From: a virus
Taxonomy: Duplodnaviria; Caudoviricetes
Reading direction: 5' to 3' (one strand)
Virus record (IMG/VR): IMGVR_UViG_3300049009_000021
Coordinates: 1 to 24,356 of that record
DNA length: 24,356 nt
The stretch's first letter is position 1, and each line of letters begins with the position of its first letter. Below are positions 1,775 to 24,356 of the stretch, piece after piece. Position numbers and translations under genes: made by a program. The notes beneath the pieces were generated by a model, which did not search any database, had not been told where the DNA came from, and was given only the letters and a program-made list of their open reading frames with translations.

Positions 1775-2263
1775 ATGGCAAAAGGCGATACAAGGCTTAG
1801 AAAATCATTGTCTGATAGATTTCACGACAAAATAGCTTATGAACCCAACAGCGGTTGCTGGTTATGGACTGGCGCAACCAACAAATTAGGTTACGGATTG
1901 ATCGGATTGGGGCATAGATCAGACGGTATTGCCAAAGCTCACAGGGTTAGCTACCTATTACATAAAGGCAATATAGAGGCAGGTTTGTGTGTTTTACACA
2001 GGTGCGACAACCCATATTGCGTCAACCCAGAACATTTATTTTTAGGCACGTTATCCGATAACATGAAAGATTGCGTACAAAAAAAACGCAATTTCCTTCC
2101 TAATAATCGTGCAGAAAAAGCAACATGGGCAAAACTCACAATAAAAAATGTGGTGCATATAAGAGAACGTGCAATGACAGGCGTTAAATACGCCAACTTG
2201 TACAGCGTAAGTAAAAGCGCAATATATGAAATTTGGCGAGGCAAAAATTGGCAAAGCGTTTAG
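1775..2263 (+). CDS. Free-standing HNH homing endonuclease with C-terminal HTH-like domain
   Basis: SGCWLWTGA..GYG..AHRVSY..VLHRCDNPYCVNPEHLFLGTLSDNMKD HNH motif. RBS GGGAG at 1765-1769 before ATG 1775. More AT-rich than the flanks. Confidence 0.9.
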   Translation: MAKGDTRLRKSLSDRFHDKIAYEPNSGCWLWTGATNKLGYGLIGLGHRSDGIAKAHRVSYLLHKGNIEAGLCVLHRCDNPYCVNPEHLFLGTLSDNMKDCVQKKRNFLPNNRAEKATWAKLTIKNVVHIRERAMTGVKYANLYSVSKSAIYEIWRGKNWQSV

Positions 2264-2349
2264 TTACTTTGCCGTATTCCCCAAGAGCAGCATTTAAACC
2301 TTTTCACGATAGGAGCGAGCGGTGGGCGTGTTTAGTTGCCCACCGCCGA
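2248..2349 (+). CDS. terL: Terminase large subunit, N-terminal segment (0 frame, up to the frameshift in Walker A)
   Basis: TTG 2248 with GAGG at 2238-2241 encodes MAKRLVTLPYSPRAAFKPFHDRSERWACLVAHRR, a typical TerL N-terminus. This frame continues into unrelated residues and stops at 2530-2532. Confidence 0.8.
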
Positions 2350-3590
2350 AAGGTGCAGGCAAGACAGTCGCAGCCATTAACGACATTGTTCGGGCTGCAC
2401 TCATGTGCAAAAGCACAAATCCCCTGTTTGCTTATATTGCGCCATTCCGCAGCCAGGCTAAGTCTGTGGCTTGGGATTACCTTAAACACTTTGCCCAACC
2501 AGTTCTTGCATCAAGCAACGAGGCAGAGCTAACCATTGAGCTTATAACTGGGGGGAAGATACGCTTGTTCGGGGCTGACAACGCAGATGCTATGCGTGGC
2601 TTGGGCTTTGATGGCGTTTTCATGGACGAATATGGTGACTTCAGGCCATCAGTCTGGGGTAACGTCATTCGGCCTACATTGTCAGATAAGCAAGGTTGGG
2701 CTGTGTTCGCAGGTACGCCAAAGGGAAAGAACCAGTTTTGGCAGATATTTGAAACAGCAAAGAAAACGCCTGACGAGTGGTTTCACCTTGTCTTAAAGGC
2801 TAGTGAGTCTGGACTGCTACCTGACACAGAGCTACGGGCAGCTGCCGCACAGATCAGCGATGACCAGTTCCTACAAGAGTACGAGTGTTCGTTTGAGGCG
2901 GCAATTTTGGGCGCTTTTTATGGCGAGGACTTACGCAAGATCACAGACGCAGGGCAAGTTAGGTGTGTTGATTACGATCCGCACCTACCGACTTACACGG
3001 CTTGGGACTTAGGCTATCGTGATGACACGGCTATTTGGTGGTATCAGGTCATCCGCAACGAAATCCATATCATTGATTATTTTGCAATAAGTGGTGCAAA
3101 CATTGCAGAAATAGCTAAAATAGTCGTAGAAAAGCCGTATAAATACGCAAAACATTACCTACCGCACGATGCAAGGGCAAAAACTCTAGCAGCAGCGGGT
3201 AAGTCAGTCATTGAGCAGTTGAGTGAGTATTTAGGTATTAACAACATGGCAATTGTTCCTGACTTGTCGGTGCAAGATGGGATTCAAGCGGTGCGTCAGA
3301 TGTTGCCGCAATGTTGGTTTGACAGCGAACGAACGCACGATGGGCTAGAGGCTTTACGACAGTATCAGCGGGAATACGACGAGGACAAGAAGGCATTTAG
3401 GCAAACGCCCAGGCATGATTGGACAAGCCACCCAGCTGACGCATTTAGGATGCTAGCAATTGCTTGGAGGCTAGAGCCAAAGGTTAAGCAGCCAGATATG
3501 GTTAAGCCGTTGATTGTCGGGCCTGAGAACACAGTAACTTTGAATGATATGTGGGCAACCCACACAACAAACCGGAGTAGAAGATTATGA
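2322..3590 (+). CDS. terL: Terminase large subunit, main body (-1 frame relative to the N-terminal segment)
   Basis: AGKT (Walker A C-half), GVFMDEY (Walker B), AGTP coupling motif, AWDLGYRDDTAIW RNase H-like nuclease motif, HDWTSHPADAFR. TerL-like sequence begins at about 2355. Confidence 0.92.
   Translation: MGVFSCPPPKGAGKTVAAINDIVRAALMCKSTNPLFAYIAPFRSQAKSVAWDYLKHFAQPVLASSNEAELTIELITGGKIRLFGADNADAMRGLGFDGVFMDEYGDFRPSVWGNVIRPTLSDKQGWAVFAGTPKGKNQFWQIFETAKKTPDEWFHLVLKASESGLLPDTELRAAAAQISDDQFLQEYECSFEAAILGAFYGEDLRKITDAGQVRCVDYDPHLPTYTAWDLGYRDDTAIWWYQVIRNEIHIIDYFAISGANIAEIAKIVVEKPYKYAKHYLPHDARAKTLAAAGKSVIEQLSEYLGINNMAIVPDLSVQDGIQAVRQMLPQCWFDSERTHDGLEALRQYQREYDEDKKAFRQTPRHDWTSHPADAFRMLAIAWRLEPKVKQPDMVKPLIVGPENTVTLNDMWATHTTNRSRRL
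2347..2352 (+). promoter_or_regulatory. Candidate -1 ribosomal frameshift site CGA-AAG
   Basis: In frame with the TerL N-terminal segment. A -1 slip (AAG to AAA) enters the TerL body frame exactly. Confidence 0.45.
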
Positions 3591-3901
3591 GCGGCGTACA
3601 ACATCCTTATGAATATCAATACGAACACGTTGCAGCAAGCCAAACGGCTCAAGTATTAGGCGGTACAGGTGCAGTTGGTGATTACTTAGCCCGTTTAATT
3701 TGTACCGTGTCAACAGCTGCATCCGGTAATGTGGTTTTGTTTGATGGTGCAGGCGTTTCACATACCGTTTTGCCAGCGTTGTGCGGCACAGGCATTAACA
3801 CTTACAACATTGAGTTAGGCGCTATTTCTAAGTTTGGATCGTGGCGAATCACGACAGGCGCAGGCGTGGAAGTGTTAGCAATTGGCATCTTTAGCGCATG
3901 A
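3587..3901 (+). CDS. Hypothetical phage protein (possible small beta-rich virion protein)
   Basis: 104 aa ORF with ATGA overlaps on both sides. Confidence 0.7.
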   Translation: MSGVQHPYEYQYEHVAASQTAQVLGGTGAVGDYLARLICTVSTAASGNVVLFDGAGVSHTVLPALCGTGINTYNIELGAISKFGSWRITTGAGVEVLAIGIFSA

Positions 3902-4488
3902 TCGTAGCGTCGGTCTTGCGGTCTGGCGGTGACTTTGAACCAAAGCACGTTTACGCCTTGCAAAAGATGTGCGCCAAGTATTTGCCACCGCATGAGTTTG
4001 TGTGCCTGTCGGACGTTGAGCTAGAGTGCAAAACTATCCCTTTAATGCACGATTGGGTTGGTTGGTGGGCAAAGATGGAGTTGTTCAGGCTACCAAGTGC
4101 GCTGTACTTTGACTTAGACACGGTGCTAATTGGTGACTGTACGGCAATGATCGAGGCGGCAAAGCAGCATGATTTTGTGATTATGCGTGACGTTTATAGG
4201 GGTCAGTACAACCCGAAAGCCATGCAGTCGAGCATGATGTACTGGTCGAAACCTGTTGATTTGTACGACAAGTTTGCAGCATTGCAGATGTATACGGCGG
4301 GTGGTGACCAGGCTTACATCGAACACTTTATGCGGGACAAAGTGACATACTGGCAGGACATATGTGATGGAATTGTGAGCTTTAAGGCTGATGTGCTGCC
4401 AAACGGGTTAGACGATGCCAAGGTGGTGATCTTTCACGGTAAACCAAGACCGTGGGAACAAACAAGGATACCGTATGAAATTGGTTAA
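3898..4488 (+). CDS. GT-A fold glycosyltransferase (GT8-like)
   Basis: GWWAKMELF, LYFDLD (DxD), SSMMYW, GGDQAYI and IFHGKPRPW motifs. Confidence 0.8.
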   Translation: MIVASVLRSGGDFEPKHVYALQKMCAKYLPPHEFVCLSDVELECKTIPLMHDWVGWWAKMELFRLPSALYFDLDTVLIGDCTAMIEAAKQHDFVIMRDVYRGQYNPKAMQSSMMYWSKPVDLYDKFAALQMYTAGGDQAYIEHFMRDKVTYWQDICDGIVSFKADVLPNGLDDAKVVIFHGKPRPWEQTRIPYEIG

Positions 4489-5086
4489 AGGCTGGCAAGT
4501 TCCCGATATTGACGAGTGCTGCATTAACGCACTCTTGGTTGAGCTGCCGGACTTAAATGTGAGTTATACCCACATGAACCAGTTCCGCACAGTTATTCAA
4601 GCCGGTGGCAATATCGGTGTTTATCCCGCAACGATGGCAGGGCAATTTGAGCGTGTCATTACAGTCGAGCCTGACCTGGTCAACTATCAGGCGTTGCTGC
4701 TAAACGTTGCAGGCCACGCCAACATTGAGCATCATTGGGCTGCATTTGGTGACAAAATTGGCACAGCATCAGTCGATCACCCATACCCTGAAAACATTGG
4801 GGCGCATCAATTAAAGGCAGGCAACGATGTGCAAGTTATACCAATTGATGCTTTAGAGGTTGATGATTGCGACTTTATCCAATTAGACATTGAAGGCTAC
4901 GAGCATCTAGCCATATTGGGTGCTAAACAAACAATCAAGAGAACGTATCCAGTTATCACGCTTGAGCTGAAAGGTTTGGGCAGTCGTTATGGATACACCG
5001 ACGAGGACACAATCAACCTACTCCAAGATTGGGGCTACGAGATTGTCGGGCGGGCAAACCGTGACGTAATTTTTGCGAGATACTAA
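4475..5086 (+). CDS. FkbM-family SAM-dependent methyltransferase
   Basis: VIQAGGNIGVY SAM-binding loop, VEPD, and DFIQLDIEGYE..AILGA..TI....PVI.LE motifs. Confidence 0.88.
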   Translation: MKLVKGWQVPDIDECCINALLVELPDLNVSYTHMNQFRTVIQAGGNIGVYPATMAGQFERVITVEPDLVNYQALLLNVAGHANIEHHWAAFGDKIGTASVDHPYPENIGAHQLKAGNDVQVIPIDALEVDDCDFIQLDIEGYEHLAILGAKQTIKRTYPVITLELKGLGSRYGYTDEDTINLLQDWGYEIVGRANRDVIFARY

Positions 5087-10784: not shown

Positions 10785-11032
10785 ATGGCATTTGCCAATA
10801 GCTCGATCAGCGACATCATTGCGACTAACATTCAAAGCCGCACCGGTGAACTTGCTGACAACGTAACAAACAACAACGCTTTACTGCGCCGTTTGAAAGA
10901 ACGTGGCAACGTAAAGACGTTTTCTGGCGGTAACGTAATTTTGCAAGAAATTATGTACCAGGATGCCGCAACCGACAATACTAATAGCTATTCAGGCTAT
11001 GAAGTTTTGAACGTTTCGCAAAACAGTCCCAT
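10785..11032 (+). CDS. Major capsid protein, exon 1
   Basis: RBS GGAG. MAFANSSISDIIATNIQSRTGELADNVTNNNALLRRLKERGNVKTFSGG...YSGYEVLNVSQNSPI. The frame runs into the intron and stops at TAG 11052-11054. Confidence 0.88.
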
Positions 11033-11292
11033 TGACGAATTAGTGGCTTTGTAGAGAAATCTGCATCGAAAAACTTTGTGAATTCGGTGAAACTCTGACC
11101 ATTAAGTTGAAGACAATACCGAGCCAAGCCCAGAGATGGGAAGGTGTAACGACTAGGGTGTGACTACCCGTAGAGCCAAGTGGCTCGAAGTGCAAAGAAC
11201 CCTACGGGGTTGTGAGATAGTCTGCTCTGCATAGAAATATGCAGCAGTCCGAAAGGGCGGCAAGGGATTAACGAAACCTTGTGAACATTTGG
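11033..11292 (+). ncRNA. Group I self-splicing intron, subgroup IA2-like, ORF-less (260 nt)
   Basis: P1 with U11032.G11043 wobble. P3 CUUUGUG (11074-80) with UGCAAAG (11191-97). P4 UUCGGU with ACCGAG. P7 GACUA (11151-55) with UAGUC (11218-22). P2, P6a, P7.1, P7.2, P8, P9, P9.1 and P9.2 hairpins. Terminal G11292. Excision restores the reading frame. Confidence 0.93.
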
Positions 11293-12046
11293 TAGTGCGG
11301 CACAGTTCAGTATCACCCAGTACGCTGCGGCAATTTCGATCAGCGGTCTGGAGATGATTCAGAACAGCGGAAAAGAAGCAATCATCGACTTGCTAGATGG
11401 TCGCATGATGGTTGCCGAAGCACAATTGGCTAACCGTATTTCGGGTGACATTTACCTAGACGGTACAGGGAACTCCGGGAAAAATATCACCGGACTCGGG
11501 GCCGCAGTCCCGGACGCACCAAGCACAGGCACATACGGCGGCATCAATCGTGCATCGTTCTCGTTTTGGCGTTCGGCTAAGTTCTCAGGCGTGACAGATG
11601 GCGGTTCGGCTACTTCAGCATCAAACATCCAGTCGTACATGGATGCTCTTGCTGTTCAGCTGATTCGTGGAACTGACAAACCTGATCTGATCGTTTGCGA
11701 CAACAACTATTACAAGCTGTATTTGCAATCGTTGCAGTCAATTCAACGCATTTCAGACGGTGGCAATTCGTCAGTTGGCGCAGGCTTTGCATCGTTGAAA
11801 TACTACGGCGCTGGCATGGCATCAGATGTGATCTTGGACGGTGGTATCGGTAACGATGCAACTGCCAATCATATGTGGTTCTTGAACACCAAATACATGA
11901 TGTTCCGTCCACACGCTGATCGTAATTTCGTGCCAATCGGCGGCGAACGTCAAGCTGTTAACCAAGACGCTATCGTTAAGCTCATCGGTTTTGCCGGGAA
12001 CCTCACATCTTCAGGCCCGCAATTCTGCGGCGTTCTGATCGCTTAA
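11293..12046 (+). CDS. Major capsid protein, exon 2 (spliced product 333 aa)
   Basis: The frame is open upstream of ATG 11354 and reads SAAQFSITQYAAAISISGLEMIQNSGKEAIIDLL...DGTGNSGKNITGL...GGI.R. Exons of 248 + 754 nt give 1002 nt. Confidence 0.88.
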
Positions 12047-12591: not shown

Positions 12592-13359
12592 ATGATTGAA
12601 GCTGTACTTGATGTTGTAGGGAACACAGAGCCTGACGTTTTGTTGGGCAATGTGCAGCGATCCGTAAAAAGGTCGCTGCCTTGGTTTGATTTTGACGAGT
12701 CATCCCAAGGCAGCGTCTGTCTTGTTGGTGGTGGGCCAAGTTTGGTTGACACGATTGACCAGTTAAAAGCCCGTCATCAAAACGGCGCTAAAGTTTGGGC
12801 AATGAATGGCTCTTACGATTATTTGGTTAAGCAAGGCATTGTGCCTGACGCAATGGTTATGCTTGATGCTCGACCAGAGAACGTAAGGTTTGTTCAAAAT
12901 CCATACGCAGCAACAACTTTTTATATTGCTAGTCAATGTGACAATTCGGTATTTGAGGCTTTAAAACAAGATCATGTTGTATTGGTACACGCCAATACGC
13001 CTGGCGTTTATGAGTTGCTTGAGCATGAAAAGGCTCGACCAGTTCATCTGATGGGCGGGTTTACAACTGTTGGCATCTTGTCGTTGATATTGGCTAAGTT
13101 GCAAGGCTTTCAGCGTATCTTTATGTTTGGCATGGATTCAAGTTACCGTAATGGCGAACACCATGCTTATAAACAAGAAAGTAATGACGCAGAACGTGTA
13201 ATTGACGCTATGATTAACGATGTGACGTACAAGTGTGCGCCGTGGATGGCACAACAGGTGACAGATTTTCAGAATGTCGTAGCAGGCTTTGGTGATGTTA
13301 CGATTGAAGTATGTGGCGATGGACTTTTGCACGAAATGGCAAAAGCGATGAGTAACTAA
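12592..13359 (+). CDS. Maf/MptE-like (DUF115-type) transferase
   Basis: VCLVGGGPSL, WAMNGSY.YL...GIVPD..VMLD, GGFTTVG and GFQRIFMFGMDSSY motifs. Confidence 0.7.
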   Translation: MIEAVLDVVGNTEPDVLLGNVQRSVKRSLPWFDFDESSQGSVCLVGGGPSLVDTIDQLKARHQNGAKVWAMNGSYDYLVKQGIVPDAMVMLDARPENVRFVQNPYAATTFYIASQCDNSVFEALKQDHVVLVHANTPGVYELLEHEKARPVHLMGGFTTVGILSLILAKLQGFQRIFMFGMDSSYRNGEHHAYKQESNDAERVIDAMINDVTYKCAPWMAQQVTDFQNVVAGFGDVTIEVCGDGLLHEMAKAMSN

Positions 13360-17111: not shown

Positions 17112-18405
17112 GTCAGCAGCAGCACCACCAGCACCAGATTATATTGGCGCAGCGAAACAGCAAGGTATTGATAACTTGACGGCGGCTAGGCAGTCAAATA
17201 TTATGTCAAACCCAAATATGTACACACCATTTGGGAATCAGACTGTAACTTATTCTGCCCCAACATTTGACCAAAGCGGCTATGACACAGCGTTGGCAAA
17301 ATATAACGCTGGCAACGTAGACCGAAATAGATATTACAGACCAGATGAACAAACTGGTCAAACATATTTTGATCAAGCAAGTTTTGATGCCGACAATGCA
17401 CGGCGAGGCGCAGCGCCAACCCGAGAAGGGTTTATGACGGGTGGCGGTCAGCCAACGGTTACACAAACGTTAACCCCACAAGCTCAACAAACGCTAGATG
17501 CACAGCAACGTGTGCAAACTTCATTAGCTAACCTTGGTGAAAGAGGCATTTCAAATGCTTATGCCACGCTTTCGCAACCTTTTACACCAACGTCAACTGA
17601 TATTAAAAAAGATTTTGGTGGGTATCAAGCAGCGCCACTAGCCGATCAATATGGGTTAGCACAAGCAAGAACAGCTGCCGACACTTATGGTTTGGCACAA
17701 CGGCAAATAGATACAAGTGGCTTGACTCAAATGCCTACTAATGCAGGCATCAATGCTCAACAAGCTATTTTGGCTCGACTTGATCCAACTATTCAGGCCG
17801 GTGACGTATCTTTCAGGCAAACATTGGCAAACCAAGGTTTAGCGCCAGGCACACAAGCCTACGATGCTGCATACAGAAACCGTCAAATGGGCATTAATGA
17901 CTTGTACAGCCAAGCTGCGTTGCAAGGCATCAATATTGACATGGCGGCTCGTCAGCAAGGATTAAACGAGCAATTGTCGCAGGCCGGCTTATACAACACG
18001 GCAGTTGGTCAAAACTTTGGTCAAGGCGTGACTGCCGATCAACTAGCAAATGCTGCTGTTGGTCAAAACTTTGGTCAGGGCATTACCGCACAAGGTCAAC
18101 AGTACAACCAAGCACTAGCAAAAGCCCAGTTTCAAAATACCGCACAGCAACAGCAACTAGCGCAAGATTTGGCGTTACGACAACAGCCAATTAATGAAGT
18201 CATTGGGTTGATGGGTGGTTCACAAATTCAATTGCCTCAATTCCAAGGGTATCAAGGCATGAGCGTTGCACCATCACCAACTTTTGCGGGTACGCAGGCG
18301 CAAGGGCAGGCTGATATGTCACGGTATGGTATTCAGCAAGCTGGCGCTAATGCAGGGATTCAAGGGCTTACTTCATTGGGTGGCATGGCTGCGATGTATT
18401 TCTGA
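17104..18405 (+). CDS. Putative DNA ejection/pilot (internal virion) protein
   Basis: MGKSAAAPPAPDY..AA N-terminus, Gln/Ala/Gly-rich. Position after the tail genes. Confidence 0.6.
   Translation: MGKSAAAPPAPDYIGAAKQQGIDNLTAARQSNIMSNPNMYTPFGNQTVTYSAPTFDQSGYDTALAKYNAGNVDRNRYYRPDEQTGQTYFDQASFDADNARRGAAPTREGFMTGGGQPTVTQTLTPQAQQTLDAQQRVQTSLANLGERGISNAYATLSQPFTPTSTDIKKDFGGYQAAPLADQYGLAQARTAADTYGLAQRQIDTSGLTQMPTNAGINAQQAILARLDPTIQAGDVSFRQTLANQGLAPGTQAYDAAYRNRQMGINDLYSQAALQGINIDMAARQQGLNEQLSQAGLYNTAVGQNFGQGVTADQLANAAVGQNFGQGITAQGQQYNQALAKAQFQNTAQQQQLAQDLALRQQPINEVIGLMGGSQIQLPQFQGYQGMSVAPSPTFAGTQAQGQADMSRYGIQQAGANAGIQGLTSLGGMAAMYF
18004..18077 (+). repeat. 20-nt perfect direct repeat GTTGGTCAAAACTTTGGTCA x2 (within duplicated AVGQNFGQG)
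   Basis: Copies at 18004-18023 and 18058-18077, 54 nt apart and in frame. Confidence 0.85.
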
Positions 18406-19097
18406 TGTTAGGTTTAGCATTCTCAGGCGGGAAGGATTCTTTAGCGTGTTGGTATTTGTACCGTGAAAAAAATCCCATCGTCTTTTGGGCAAATACTGGC
18501 AAGTCTTACCCTGAAACGATCAAAATCATCGAACAGGTTAAAGCAGAAGCGGTTGAATTTATTGAAGTGAAGTCAGATCAAGAGCAGCAGATTAAGTTTT
18601 ACGGCTATCCAAGTGATGTTGTGCCGGTTGACCATAGCCTTGAAGGTATGGTGTTTGCAGGCGATAAGCCAGTACGAGTACAGAGTTATTTAAACTGTTG
18701 TTGGGCAAACGTGGGACAACCTCTGACAGAGGCAATAGCTAAACGTGGCATTACGCACTTAATTCGTGGGCAAAGGCTTGATGAAAGCCACAAATCCACG
18801 GCTCGGCACGGGTCGGTAGTGAATGGTGTGACGTACATTCAACCGATAGAAACATGGACTAAAAAACAAGTTTTGGCGTTTTTACAGACTCAATGTCAGT
18901 TACCAGAACATTTTGCAATCGACCACTCAAGCCTTGATTGTTACGATTGCACAGCGTATTTGGCGCACTCAGCGGATCGAGTGGCATGGATGAAAGAAAA
19001 ACACCCAAATTTGCATGAAAAATATAAAATAAACATGGCGGCACTAAAGTCTGCCTTGTTGCCTACTTTAGAGTTATTAAGGAATTGCGATGCTTAA
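18405..19097 (+). CDS. Phosphoadenosine phosphosulfate (PAPS) reductase-family protein
   Basis: LAFSGGKDS PP-loop, NTGKSYPET, CC, GQRLDES, PIETWT...V..FL and SLDCYDCT motifs. Confidence 0.85.
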   Translation: MLGLAFSGGKDSLACWYLYREKNPIVFWANTGKSYPETIKIIEQVKAEAVEFIEVKSDQEQQIKFYGYPSDVVPVDHSLEGMVFAGDKPVRVQSYLNCCWANVGQPLTEAIAKRGITHLIRGQRLDESHKSTARHGSVVNGVTYIQPIETWTKKQVLAFLQTQCQLPEHFAIDHSSLDCYDCTAYLAHSADRVAWMKEKHPNLHEKYKINMAALKSALLPTLELLRNCDA

Positions 19098-22970: not shown

Positions 22971-22975
22971 TCAAA

Positions 22976-24356
22976 GTGAGCTACAACGGTTCAGGCACGT
23001 TCGTAATCAACTCAGCTGGTCAGCCAGTTGTTACAGGAACAGTCATCTCATCAACAGCGTTTAATGCGCTGACCGCTGATTTGGCTACCGGCCTATCGAC
23101 TGCGCTTACTAAAGACGGTCAAACTACACCGACAGCCAATCTTCCTATGGGAACTTTTAAGTTTACGGGATTGAGTGCGGGATCGGCAGCAACTGACTCT
23201 GCAAATATTGCACAAGTGCAAAACTCGTTTGGCTCGTTCTTGACCGTATCTGGAACAGACACAATTACAGCGACTGTTAGCCCAGCATTAACTGCGTATA
23301 CAGCGGGTCAAATGTTTGCGTTTGTTGCAGCCAACACAAATACTGGTGCGGTGACAATCAACATTAGTACTTTAGGTGCAAAGGCAGTTACAAAAACCGG
23401 AACAACAGCGTTAGTATCAAGCGATTTAATTGCAAACTATTTGTACGTTATTGTGTACGACGGCACGCAATTTCAAGTAGTCGGTGTATCTGCAACAACA
23501 TTTGCAAATTTAACCATTAGCGGTGTTTTGACTCTTTCAGGCGCAGGCGTTCAGTTAACCAGTTCAGGTACTGGCGCATGGAAAATGCCAGTAGGTACAA
23601 CGGGTCAACGCCCAACGGGTGCTGCGGGTTTAATTCGTCAAAATACTACAACTGGAAACCCTGAATGGTATGACACAACTACTTCAACATGGCGGCAATT
23701 TAGTCAGCCTGCTGGGTACTCGGTTGATTACTTGATTGCGTCTGGTGGTGGCGGTGGAGGCGGTGGGTCAGGCGGTGGTGGCGGTGCGGGTGGATTATTA
23801 ACTGGTACGACTTCATTATCTTCAGGTGTAGCTTACACAATTACAATAGGTTCAGGTGGGGCAGGTGGAACAACAAACACAGACGGCACTATAGGCGTTG
23901 TTTCAAGCGCACTTACCGTATCGCCTGTTGGCGGCGGTTATGGGCAAGGTAGCGTAGGTGGTTCAGGCGGTTCAGGTGGGGCAGGCGGTTCAGGCGGCGG
24001 TGGATTTGGCGGCGGTGGTGGATCTGGCTCAGGCGGTACTGGAACATCTGGGCAAGGATCAAATGGCGGTAACGGTGCTACTCAAAACGCAGGTGGCGGC
24101 GGCGGCTCAAGTGCCGTTGGTGGCAATGCAGTTGCATCGGCCTCAGCGGGCGTGGGTGGGGCAGGCACATCCAATAGTATTAGCGGCTCGGCGGTAACGT
24201 ATGCAGGCGGTGGCGGTGGCGGCGCTTTGAACAATGGGTCAGCACTTGGCGGGGCAGGTGGAGCAGGTGGTGGAGGTCTTGGTGGCTACACCGCTGCCGG
24301 TGCGGCAGGATCAGCCAATTCAGGTGGTGGCGGTGGCGGTGGCGGTGGTTCTGGCT
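22976..24356 (+). CDS. Tail fibre protein with Gly-rich C-terminal region (partial, runs off the window)
   Basis: GAGG RBS and GTG 22976: MSYNGSGTFVINSAGQPVVTGTVISSTAFNALTADLATGLSTALTKDGQTTPT... Later contains VDYLIASGGGGGGGG..GGGGAGG. No stop seen before the window end. Confidence 0.8.
   Translation, partial: MSYNGSGTFVINSAGQPVVTGTVISSTAFNALTADLATGLSTALTKDGQTTPTANLPMGTFKFTGLSAGSAATDSANIAQVQNSFGSFLTVSGTDTITATVSPALTAYTAGQMFAFVAANTNTGAVTINISTLGAKAVTKTGTTALVSSDLIANYLYVIVYDGTQFQVVGVSATTFANLTISGVLTLSGAGVQLTSSGTGAWKMPVGTTGQRPTGAAGLIRQNTTTGNPEWYDTTTSTWRQFSQPAGYSVDYLIASGGGGGGGGSGGGGGAGGLLTGTTSLSSGVAYTITIGSGGAGGTTNTDGTIGVVSSALTVSPVGGGYGQGSVGGSGGSGGAGGSGGGGFGGGGGSGSGGTGTSGQGSNGGNGATQNAGGGGGSSAVGGNAVASASAGVGGAGTSNSISGSAVTYAGGGGGGALNNGSALGGAGGAGGGGLGGYTAAGAAGSANSGGGGGGGGGSG

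Follow-up and report, generated by a model that had tools for sequence, protein, structure and literature searches.

An ORF-less group IA intron, predicted to splice itself out, in the major capsid protein gene of a small aquatic phage

What interrupts the major capsid protein (MCP) gene of this phage, and how could a full-length capsid protein still be made from it? The window -- the whole stretch of DNA analysed here, a linear virus record of 24.4 kb that is about 70% complete -- carries the genes expected for tailed phage morphogenesis, including those for terminase, portal, a probable scaffold, MCP (PHROG 9953), a virion protein and a tail protein, with the probable scaffold gene and the virion protein gene as the neighbours of the MCP gene. 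The named MCPs closest to it, at 48-55% identity, are those of phages ppBjS10J-1, BUCT555, Mx8 and Mx9. Scans of the window for promoters and terminators gave matches at chance level only, and no tRNA genes were found in it. Gene callers split the MCP into two ORFs, and the resulting 89-aa stub and 230-aa fragment distort phage trees and taxonomy built on the capsid.

The interrupted capsid gene

Exon 1 (10785..11032, + strand) comprises codons 1-82 and two bases of Ile83, and exon 2 (11293..12046, + strand) begins with the third base of codon 83 and ends with the stop. The two match adjoining parts of one profile, the PHROG 9953 major head protein (positions 4-79 of 329, E 1e-16, and 84-328 of 329, E 1e-80, respectively), which counts for reading the 260 nt between them (11033..11292, + strand) as an intron; a Pfam match was found for neither exon. 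Left in place, the insert closes the frame that opens at 10785 with a TAG at 11052-11054, after 89 amino acids, and because of this in-frame stop full-length MCP in phages carrying the insert ("carriers") would require splicing, as the original prediction had argued. Removing 11033-11292 in silico, so that 11032 is joined to 11293, gives 1002 nt encoding 333 amino acids with a terminal stop only. All coordinates proposed for the frame break, the 89-aa unspliced product and the restored 333-aa protein hold. The insert was also said to carry no endonuclease ORF, and its longest stop-free stretch is indeed 53 codons over all six frames, or 39 on the + strand.

Alignment with intron-less homologues, suggested at the outset as a check, speaks for the same splice sites. 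The homologues are single genes; among the 80 closest MCP loci in IMG/VR, kept out of at least 592 confirmed relatives, 75 are continuous across the site, four have the intron and one starts after it. The same 15 residues round the site as in the predicted spliced product are seen in 58 of the 75. Six of these empty alleles (L002-L007) encode proteins 98-99% identical to the spliced MCP, so close that a comparison of the 260-nt ribozyme with its natural empty counterparts could show what an intron costs in the late gene that is expressed most highly. At the level of sequence, a group I intron in the MCP gene at 11033-11292 is confirmed.

The two called ORFs, of 89 and 230 amino acids, would also be expected of a dead intron or an assembly artefact, with the genomes defective or the capsid built from two separate genes, and the spliced carrier junction is missing from all eight RNA runs considered below. 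Such an explanation is very hard to credit, however, given that the homologues are single genes, that the same insert lies at the same base in 24 IMG/VR contigs and in 3 of 118 metagenome matches, and that none of the 11 distinct copies has a broken pair; a separate downstream gene using the internal ATG at 11354 would, moreover, drop about 20 conserved residues.

Structure of the insert and its relation to T4 introns

The covariance-model check proposed for the insert came out positive: Rfam RF00028 matches 11021-11244 over its full length (model positions 1-253 of 253) at 67.2 bits, E 2.6e-15, against a gathering cut-off of 50 bits, and it is the sole Rfam family matched in the window at the gathering threshold. 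Four relatives score 62.8-68 bits. Every helix named in the original prediction has been found again, and P5, P6, P9.1 and P9.2 can be drawn in addition. P1 with its internal guide sequence occupies 11029..11046 (+ strand throughout) and places the U11032.G11043 wobble at the 5' splice site; P2, with a GAAA loop, occupies 11050..11065 and contains the in-frame stop. The region 11074..11145 holds the 5' strand of P3 (11074-11080), P4 (11084-11089/11117-11122), P5, which is short, P6 and a minimal P6a (11129-11140). The catalytic core, 11149..11223, consists of P7 (11151-11155/11218-11222) with a bulged C11150, P7.1 (11156-11169), P7.2 (11173-11186), the 3' strand of P3 (11191-11197), P8 (11198-11211) with a UACG loop, and J8/7; P3 ends in two G.U pairs. 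The 3' part, 11227..11292, is made up of P9 (11227-11244), P9.1 (11247-11258), P9.2 (11260-11282) and omega-G 11292, the terminal G being present in every codon-83 copy inspected. An in-frame stop lies at most 12 codons from the splice site in all 24 codon-83 copies; early in-frame stops of this kind are described as typical of bacterial group I introns in PMC3984707.

From P1 to P9.2, including the P3/P7 pseudoknot, the structure comprises 75 pairs in 14 helices, and 825 of 825 cells are paired across 11 distinct copies, the same sequences from which it was drawn by hand. Compensatory change is seen at seven pairs, in P2, P5, P7.1 (two pairs), P8 (two pairs) and P9.2, which amounts to few independent events; one of 500 shuffles gave as high a count, and slid controls pair at 34-42%. 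P3, P7 and P9 are invariant across these copies. P1 is paired in 11 of 11, including U11032.G11043, and P10, between 11039-11042 and the first four bases of exon 2, keeps its four pairs in 11 of 11; they do so with no covariation, though the guide varies, and the shuffle control is therefore uninformative for this helix. The exon nucleotides engaged in P1 and P10 are kept in all 16 copies of a set found by an intron-internal motif, versus 3 of 72 empty alleles. The fold energy of the insert has a z of -2.5 relative to shuffles, 2 of 200 being equally good; since the fold by itself beats shuffled sequence so modestly, the evidence for an intron comes from the covariance model, from the empty alleles and from compensatory changes, taken together.

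A group I intron is assigned to class IA when it has extra helices, P7.1 and P7.2, between P7 and P3's 3' strand. Both are present here in that position, and on sequence grounds they place the window intron in subgroup IA, as had been proposed. P7.1 and P7.2 are named as class features in PMC3984707, and more than half of viral group I introns are said to be IA2 in PMC11835236.

The likeness to the T4 td intron in the original prediction stands in part. A covariance model built on the window intron finds all three T4 introns annotated "group 1A intron" in NC_000866.4, scoring nrdB at 65.7, td at 65.3 and nrdD at 44.9 bits, while direct identity is 79% over 81 nt with nrdB, 84% over 32 nt with td and 69% over 80 nt with nrdD. 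Because nrdB matches at least as well as td, "T4-like IA" is more exact than "td-like". These T4 introns (nrdB, td and nrdD, the last also known as sunY) share the core and the P7.1/P7.2 region with the window intron, but their host genes serve nucleotide metabolism and they encode I-TevI, I-TevII or I-TevIII, whereas loops L6a and L8 of the window intron are tetraloops.

In vitro, such T4 introns splice themselves. This argues against a second possibility, that the intron is real but depends on a host or phage protein -- a chaperone or a maturase acting in trans -- to fold and splice, as does the presence of every core and peripheral helix, with GNRA and UNCG loops. An intron that has no ORF of its own, ends P3 in two G.U pairs, has so short a P5 and shows no spliced junction in the contigs of eight RNA runs might seem to call for such help; on balance we regard this as very unlikely.

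The insert is instead very likely to represent an intact group IA (IA2-like) intron without an ORF, predicted to remove itself and so restore the 333-aa MCP, and it is probably a near-neutral selfish passenger that plays no part in regulation. By established group I chemistry, removal from the late mRNA would follow the guanosine-dependent two-step reaction: a free G bound at P7 would attack just past U11032, whereupon the released exon, positioned by P1 and P10, would attack in its turn past G11292. Ribosomes would leave the RNA at the in-frame stop in P2, short of the core. An intact structure can be kept in this way without any benefit to the phage, because failed splicing would be lethal to capsid assembly.

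The choice of a capsid gene as host, implied at first to be unusual, proves less so. According to PMC11878797, the majority of phage genes that are split function in nucleotide or DNA metabolism, and this bias is called mysterious in PMC12350094; both still treat it as unexplained. Group I introns in MCP genes are nonetheless already reported for crAss-like phages of the Delta and Zeta groups, by Yutin et al., 2021 (PMC7886860), so that capsid-gene group I introns are known and the window intron adds a further instance. The crAss-like examples are likewise group I introns of tailed-phage MCP genes, drawn from metagenomes with splicing inferred, but they were recognised by their endonuclease domains and belong to large gut phages of Bacteroidetes. 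Unlike them, the window intron is ORF-less, interrupts a PHROG 9953 (Mx8-like) MCP gene of a small aquatic phage, and has boundaries known to the base. Staphylococcus phage Twort orf142 reportedly contains group I introns described by Landthaler and Shub in 1999, and these are said to be ORF-less. That gene resembles some relatives of the window MCP gene in being a late structural gene with more than one group I intron, though the comparison is one of description alone; it differs in that it is a tail gene, belongs to a Gram-positive myovirus and has had its splicing demonstrated by experiment. Twort orf142 is also cited as an intron-bearing structural gene in PMC11878797, whose supplement may list further capsid cases; a literature search for capsid-gene group I introns turned up no paper about the present phage group.

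Distribution of the codon-83 intron and the question of regulation

A scan of IMG/VR for this intron's 3' end yielded 44 matches, of which 24 are the codon-83 intron and 20 have no capsid match. All 24 copies are 258-261 nt long and hence too short for an endonuclease gene, and an endonuclease-bearing version at codon 83 was found in none of them. None of 14 matches in prokaryote genomes is the codon-83 locus, and in a metagenome scan with a loose pattern, covering 3 of 64 parts, 3 of 118 matches are truly the codon-83 insert.

In a tree of 92 distinct MCP genes (105 minus 13 duplicates; 600 exon-2 bases), the 19 carriers require 12 gains or losses, 11 of them forced by well-supported branches. 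Carriers are more clustered than shuffled labels would be (mean 17.5, with 0 of 500 as low as 12); they were purposely over-sampled, the scans having been directed at the intron, and selection for the copy set, the tree and the flank comparison alike made use of the flank pattern. Intron identity to the window copy declines from 100% down to 87% along with a drop in exon identity to 69%, and introns that are identical or 98% identical occur on exons only 80-88% identical (L009, L014 and L441). Between carriers, flank identity is elevated no further than 15 nt from the site (0.91 and 0.93 versus 0.81 and 0.75), in part by construction, and no long co-conversion tract was found in the flanks beyond that distance; nothing here accordingly points to recent homing that left a long tract. 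Given this, and the lack of an endonuclease version among the 24 copies, repeated loss with recombination fits equally well, and the pattern of intron and exon identities agrees with old residence accompanied by recombination and loss. The intron probably comes from an endonuclease-bearing lineage common in aquatic-phage capsid genes, the endonuclease having been lost or never gained; its present movement would depend on ordinary recombination, or on hitch-hiking when homing takes place nearby, with occasional loss. Introns are described as ancestrally ORF-less in PMC3073962. In one carrier (L111) about 13 bases seem to be absent from exon 2 immediately after the codon-83 splice site, which would shift the frame; this is perhaps an assembly error.

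Eight of 24 listed RNA runs (seven from lake water and one marine) were used as contigs, and the spliced carrier junction was seen in none of the eight, coverage of the carrier allele being fragmentary. Intron-skipping joints in runs X1 and X2, one in X3 and a loose end in X6 were considered as candidates for splicing and rejected, since the joints over the intron carry empty-allele codons. Intron sequence itself is present in runs X1, X4, X6 and X7. One contig from X1 runs through the 5' splice site and represents either unspliced RNA or DNA. An excised intron would end at omega-G, and one X4 contig (11137-11292, with no differences) ends exactly there, though as a single contig from a single study it falls below the bar set for a weak hint. 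These contigs are compatible with splicing or with its absence, and neither show nor exclude it.

The original prediction had also suggested that splicing could gate virion assembly. Splicing would then be a regulatory step whose rate, depending on GTP, Mg2+ or temperature, delays or limits capsid production, and carriers would be selected for it. Full-length MCP is indeed impossible in carriers without splicing, the intron stays intact on exon backgrounds down to 69% identity, and a "molecular on-switch" role for phage introns is floated in PMC11878797. The intact structure is, however, explained by the lethality of failed splicing alone. Alleles 98-99% identical to the carrier lack the intron, contigs of empty alleles occur in the same RNA libraries and carriers are scattered on the capsid-gene tree, so that the gating idea finds no support. 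A riboswitch aptamer near the 5' splice site was sought as well, and no second Rfam element is present in the window at the gathering threshold. A gate of this kind seems very unlikely, and the reading of the intron as a near-neutral passenger is retained.

Other capsid-gene introns and neighbouring genes

A 19-base signature spanning P7 and P9 was found at a minimum of 120 loci (about 200 estimated), 80 of them with flanking sequence. Assigned by downstream exon, with one representative scanned per cluster (seven in all), 33 of the 80 belong to the window MCP family (PHROG 9953) and 38 to PHROG 283, with one more probable; four lie in DNA polymerase genes and four are without assignment. Clustered at 95% exon identity, these form 24 PHROG 9953 groups, 29 PHROG 283 groups (including the probable one) and 8 others. 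Capsid genes of two families therefore hold 71 of the 80 loci with the core signature; as the signature was taken from the window intron, this census describes its lineage and not phage introns generally. The concentration in capsid genes suggests that highly conserved sequence, rather than gene function, sets intron location.

Up to five insertion sites occur in the window MCP family -- codons 13/14, 27 and 83, and probably 53 and 309 -- and some of its genes carry two inserts. Those at codon 13/14 are seen in L129, L130 and L160; in L129 there is a long insertion close to the intron's 5' end which, by eye, resembles an endonuclease gene on the opposite strand. The codon-27 site holds a group I intron of 700-733 nt with a GIY-YIG endonuclease ORF in loop L8 (Pfam PF01541 in L057, where the endonuclease gene lies at 2306-2767); it was observed in L057 (2133-2832), L059-L062, L064, L065, L069, L074, L075, L125, L136, L140 and L147, and is present in closely and distantly related capsid genes. 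Inserts were noted at codon 53 in L093/L404 and at codon 309 in L111/L409, L421 and L429. None of these was reported by Rfam at E 0.01, and the window-intron model gives E 2e-5 for L404, 0.09 for L429 and no match for L409; with such scores they can be called only probable group I introns.

The sister introns share one site in PHROG 283 capsid genes (L082, L088, L120, L121 and 34 more), again in an MCP gene, though of another capsid family and at another site than the window intron. They are mostly 747-768 nt long, and the one of that size tested, in L088, has an HNH ORF in loop L6a, between the P6 strands. Two are ORF-less, at 251 and 257 nt, and ORF-less PHROG 283 copies are the best-scoring relatives of the window intron (176 and 152 bits).

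The codon-27 GIY-YIG intron and the codon-83 intron occur together in L143 and L177. We can suggest only tentatively, and with more doubt than confidence, that an IA2 lineage has specialised on the MCP genes of small aquatic phages, with the ORF-less codon-83 copy hitch-hiking on the codon-27 GIY-YIG intron; if so, the textbook bias towards DNA-metabolism genes would reflect the sampling of cultured phages, and capsid genes would be a main reservoir. As for a free-standing endonuclease close to the MCP gene that might home the intron in trans, the sole free-standing HNH gene found lies 9 kb upstream of the MCP gene, beside terL. It occupies window positions 1775-2263 (Pfam HNH_3), between a probable small terminase gene and terL, the start of which it overlaps, and is absent at the same place in L204, L324, L367 and L402.

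Enzyme-like genes are found among the virion genes at 3898-5086, 12592-13359 and 18405-19097. By Pfam they include an FkbM-type methyltransferase at 4475-5086, an MptE-like protein and a protein with a PAPS-reductase domain; 3898-4488 has no Pfam match. They may serve to modify the virion or the host surface. Towards the end of the window, 22971-23957 (within 22971-24356) has no + strand ORF with a common start among those listed.

The large terminase gene (2233-3590) has five extra bases near 2350-2354, in the Walker A motif, which shift the frame. Related loci for this insertion are L202-L204, L324, L333, L343, L367 and L402. The same allele, or a one-base variant of it, was found in three contigs by exact scan and in five of the best 80 terminase loci, with two contigs common to both; one carrier of the insertion is only 81% identical in protein. 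A literature search for frameshifts in the terminase Walker A motif found none. The insertion could possibly be bypassed by a -1 frameshift or by re-initiation. The terminase carriers share a near-invariant block that includes a Shine-Dalgarno-like run, a GTG at 2322 and a 10-bp hairpin, and the hairpin is also present in L375, which has no terminase insertion.
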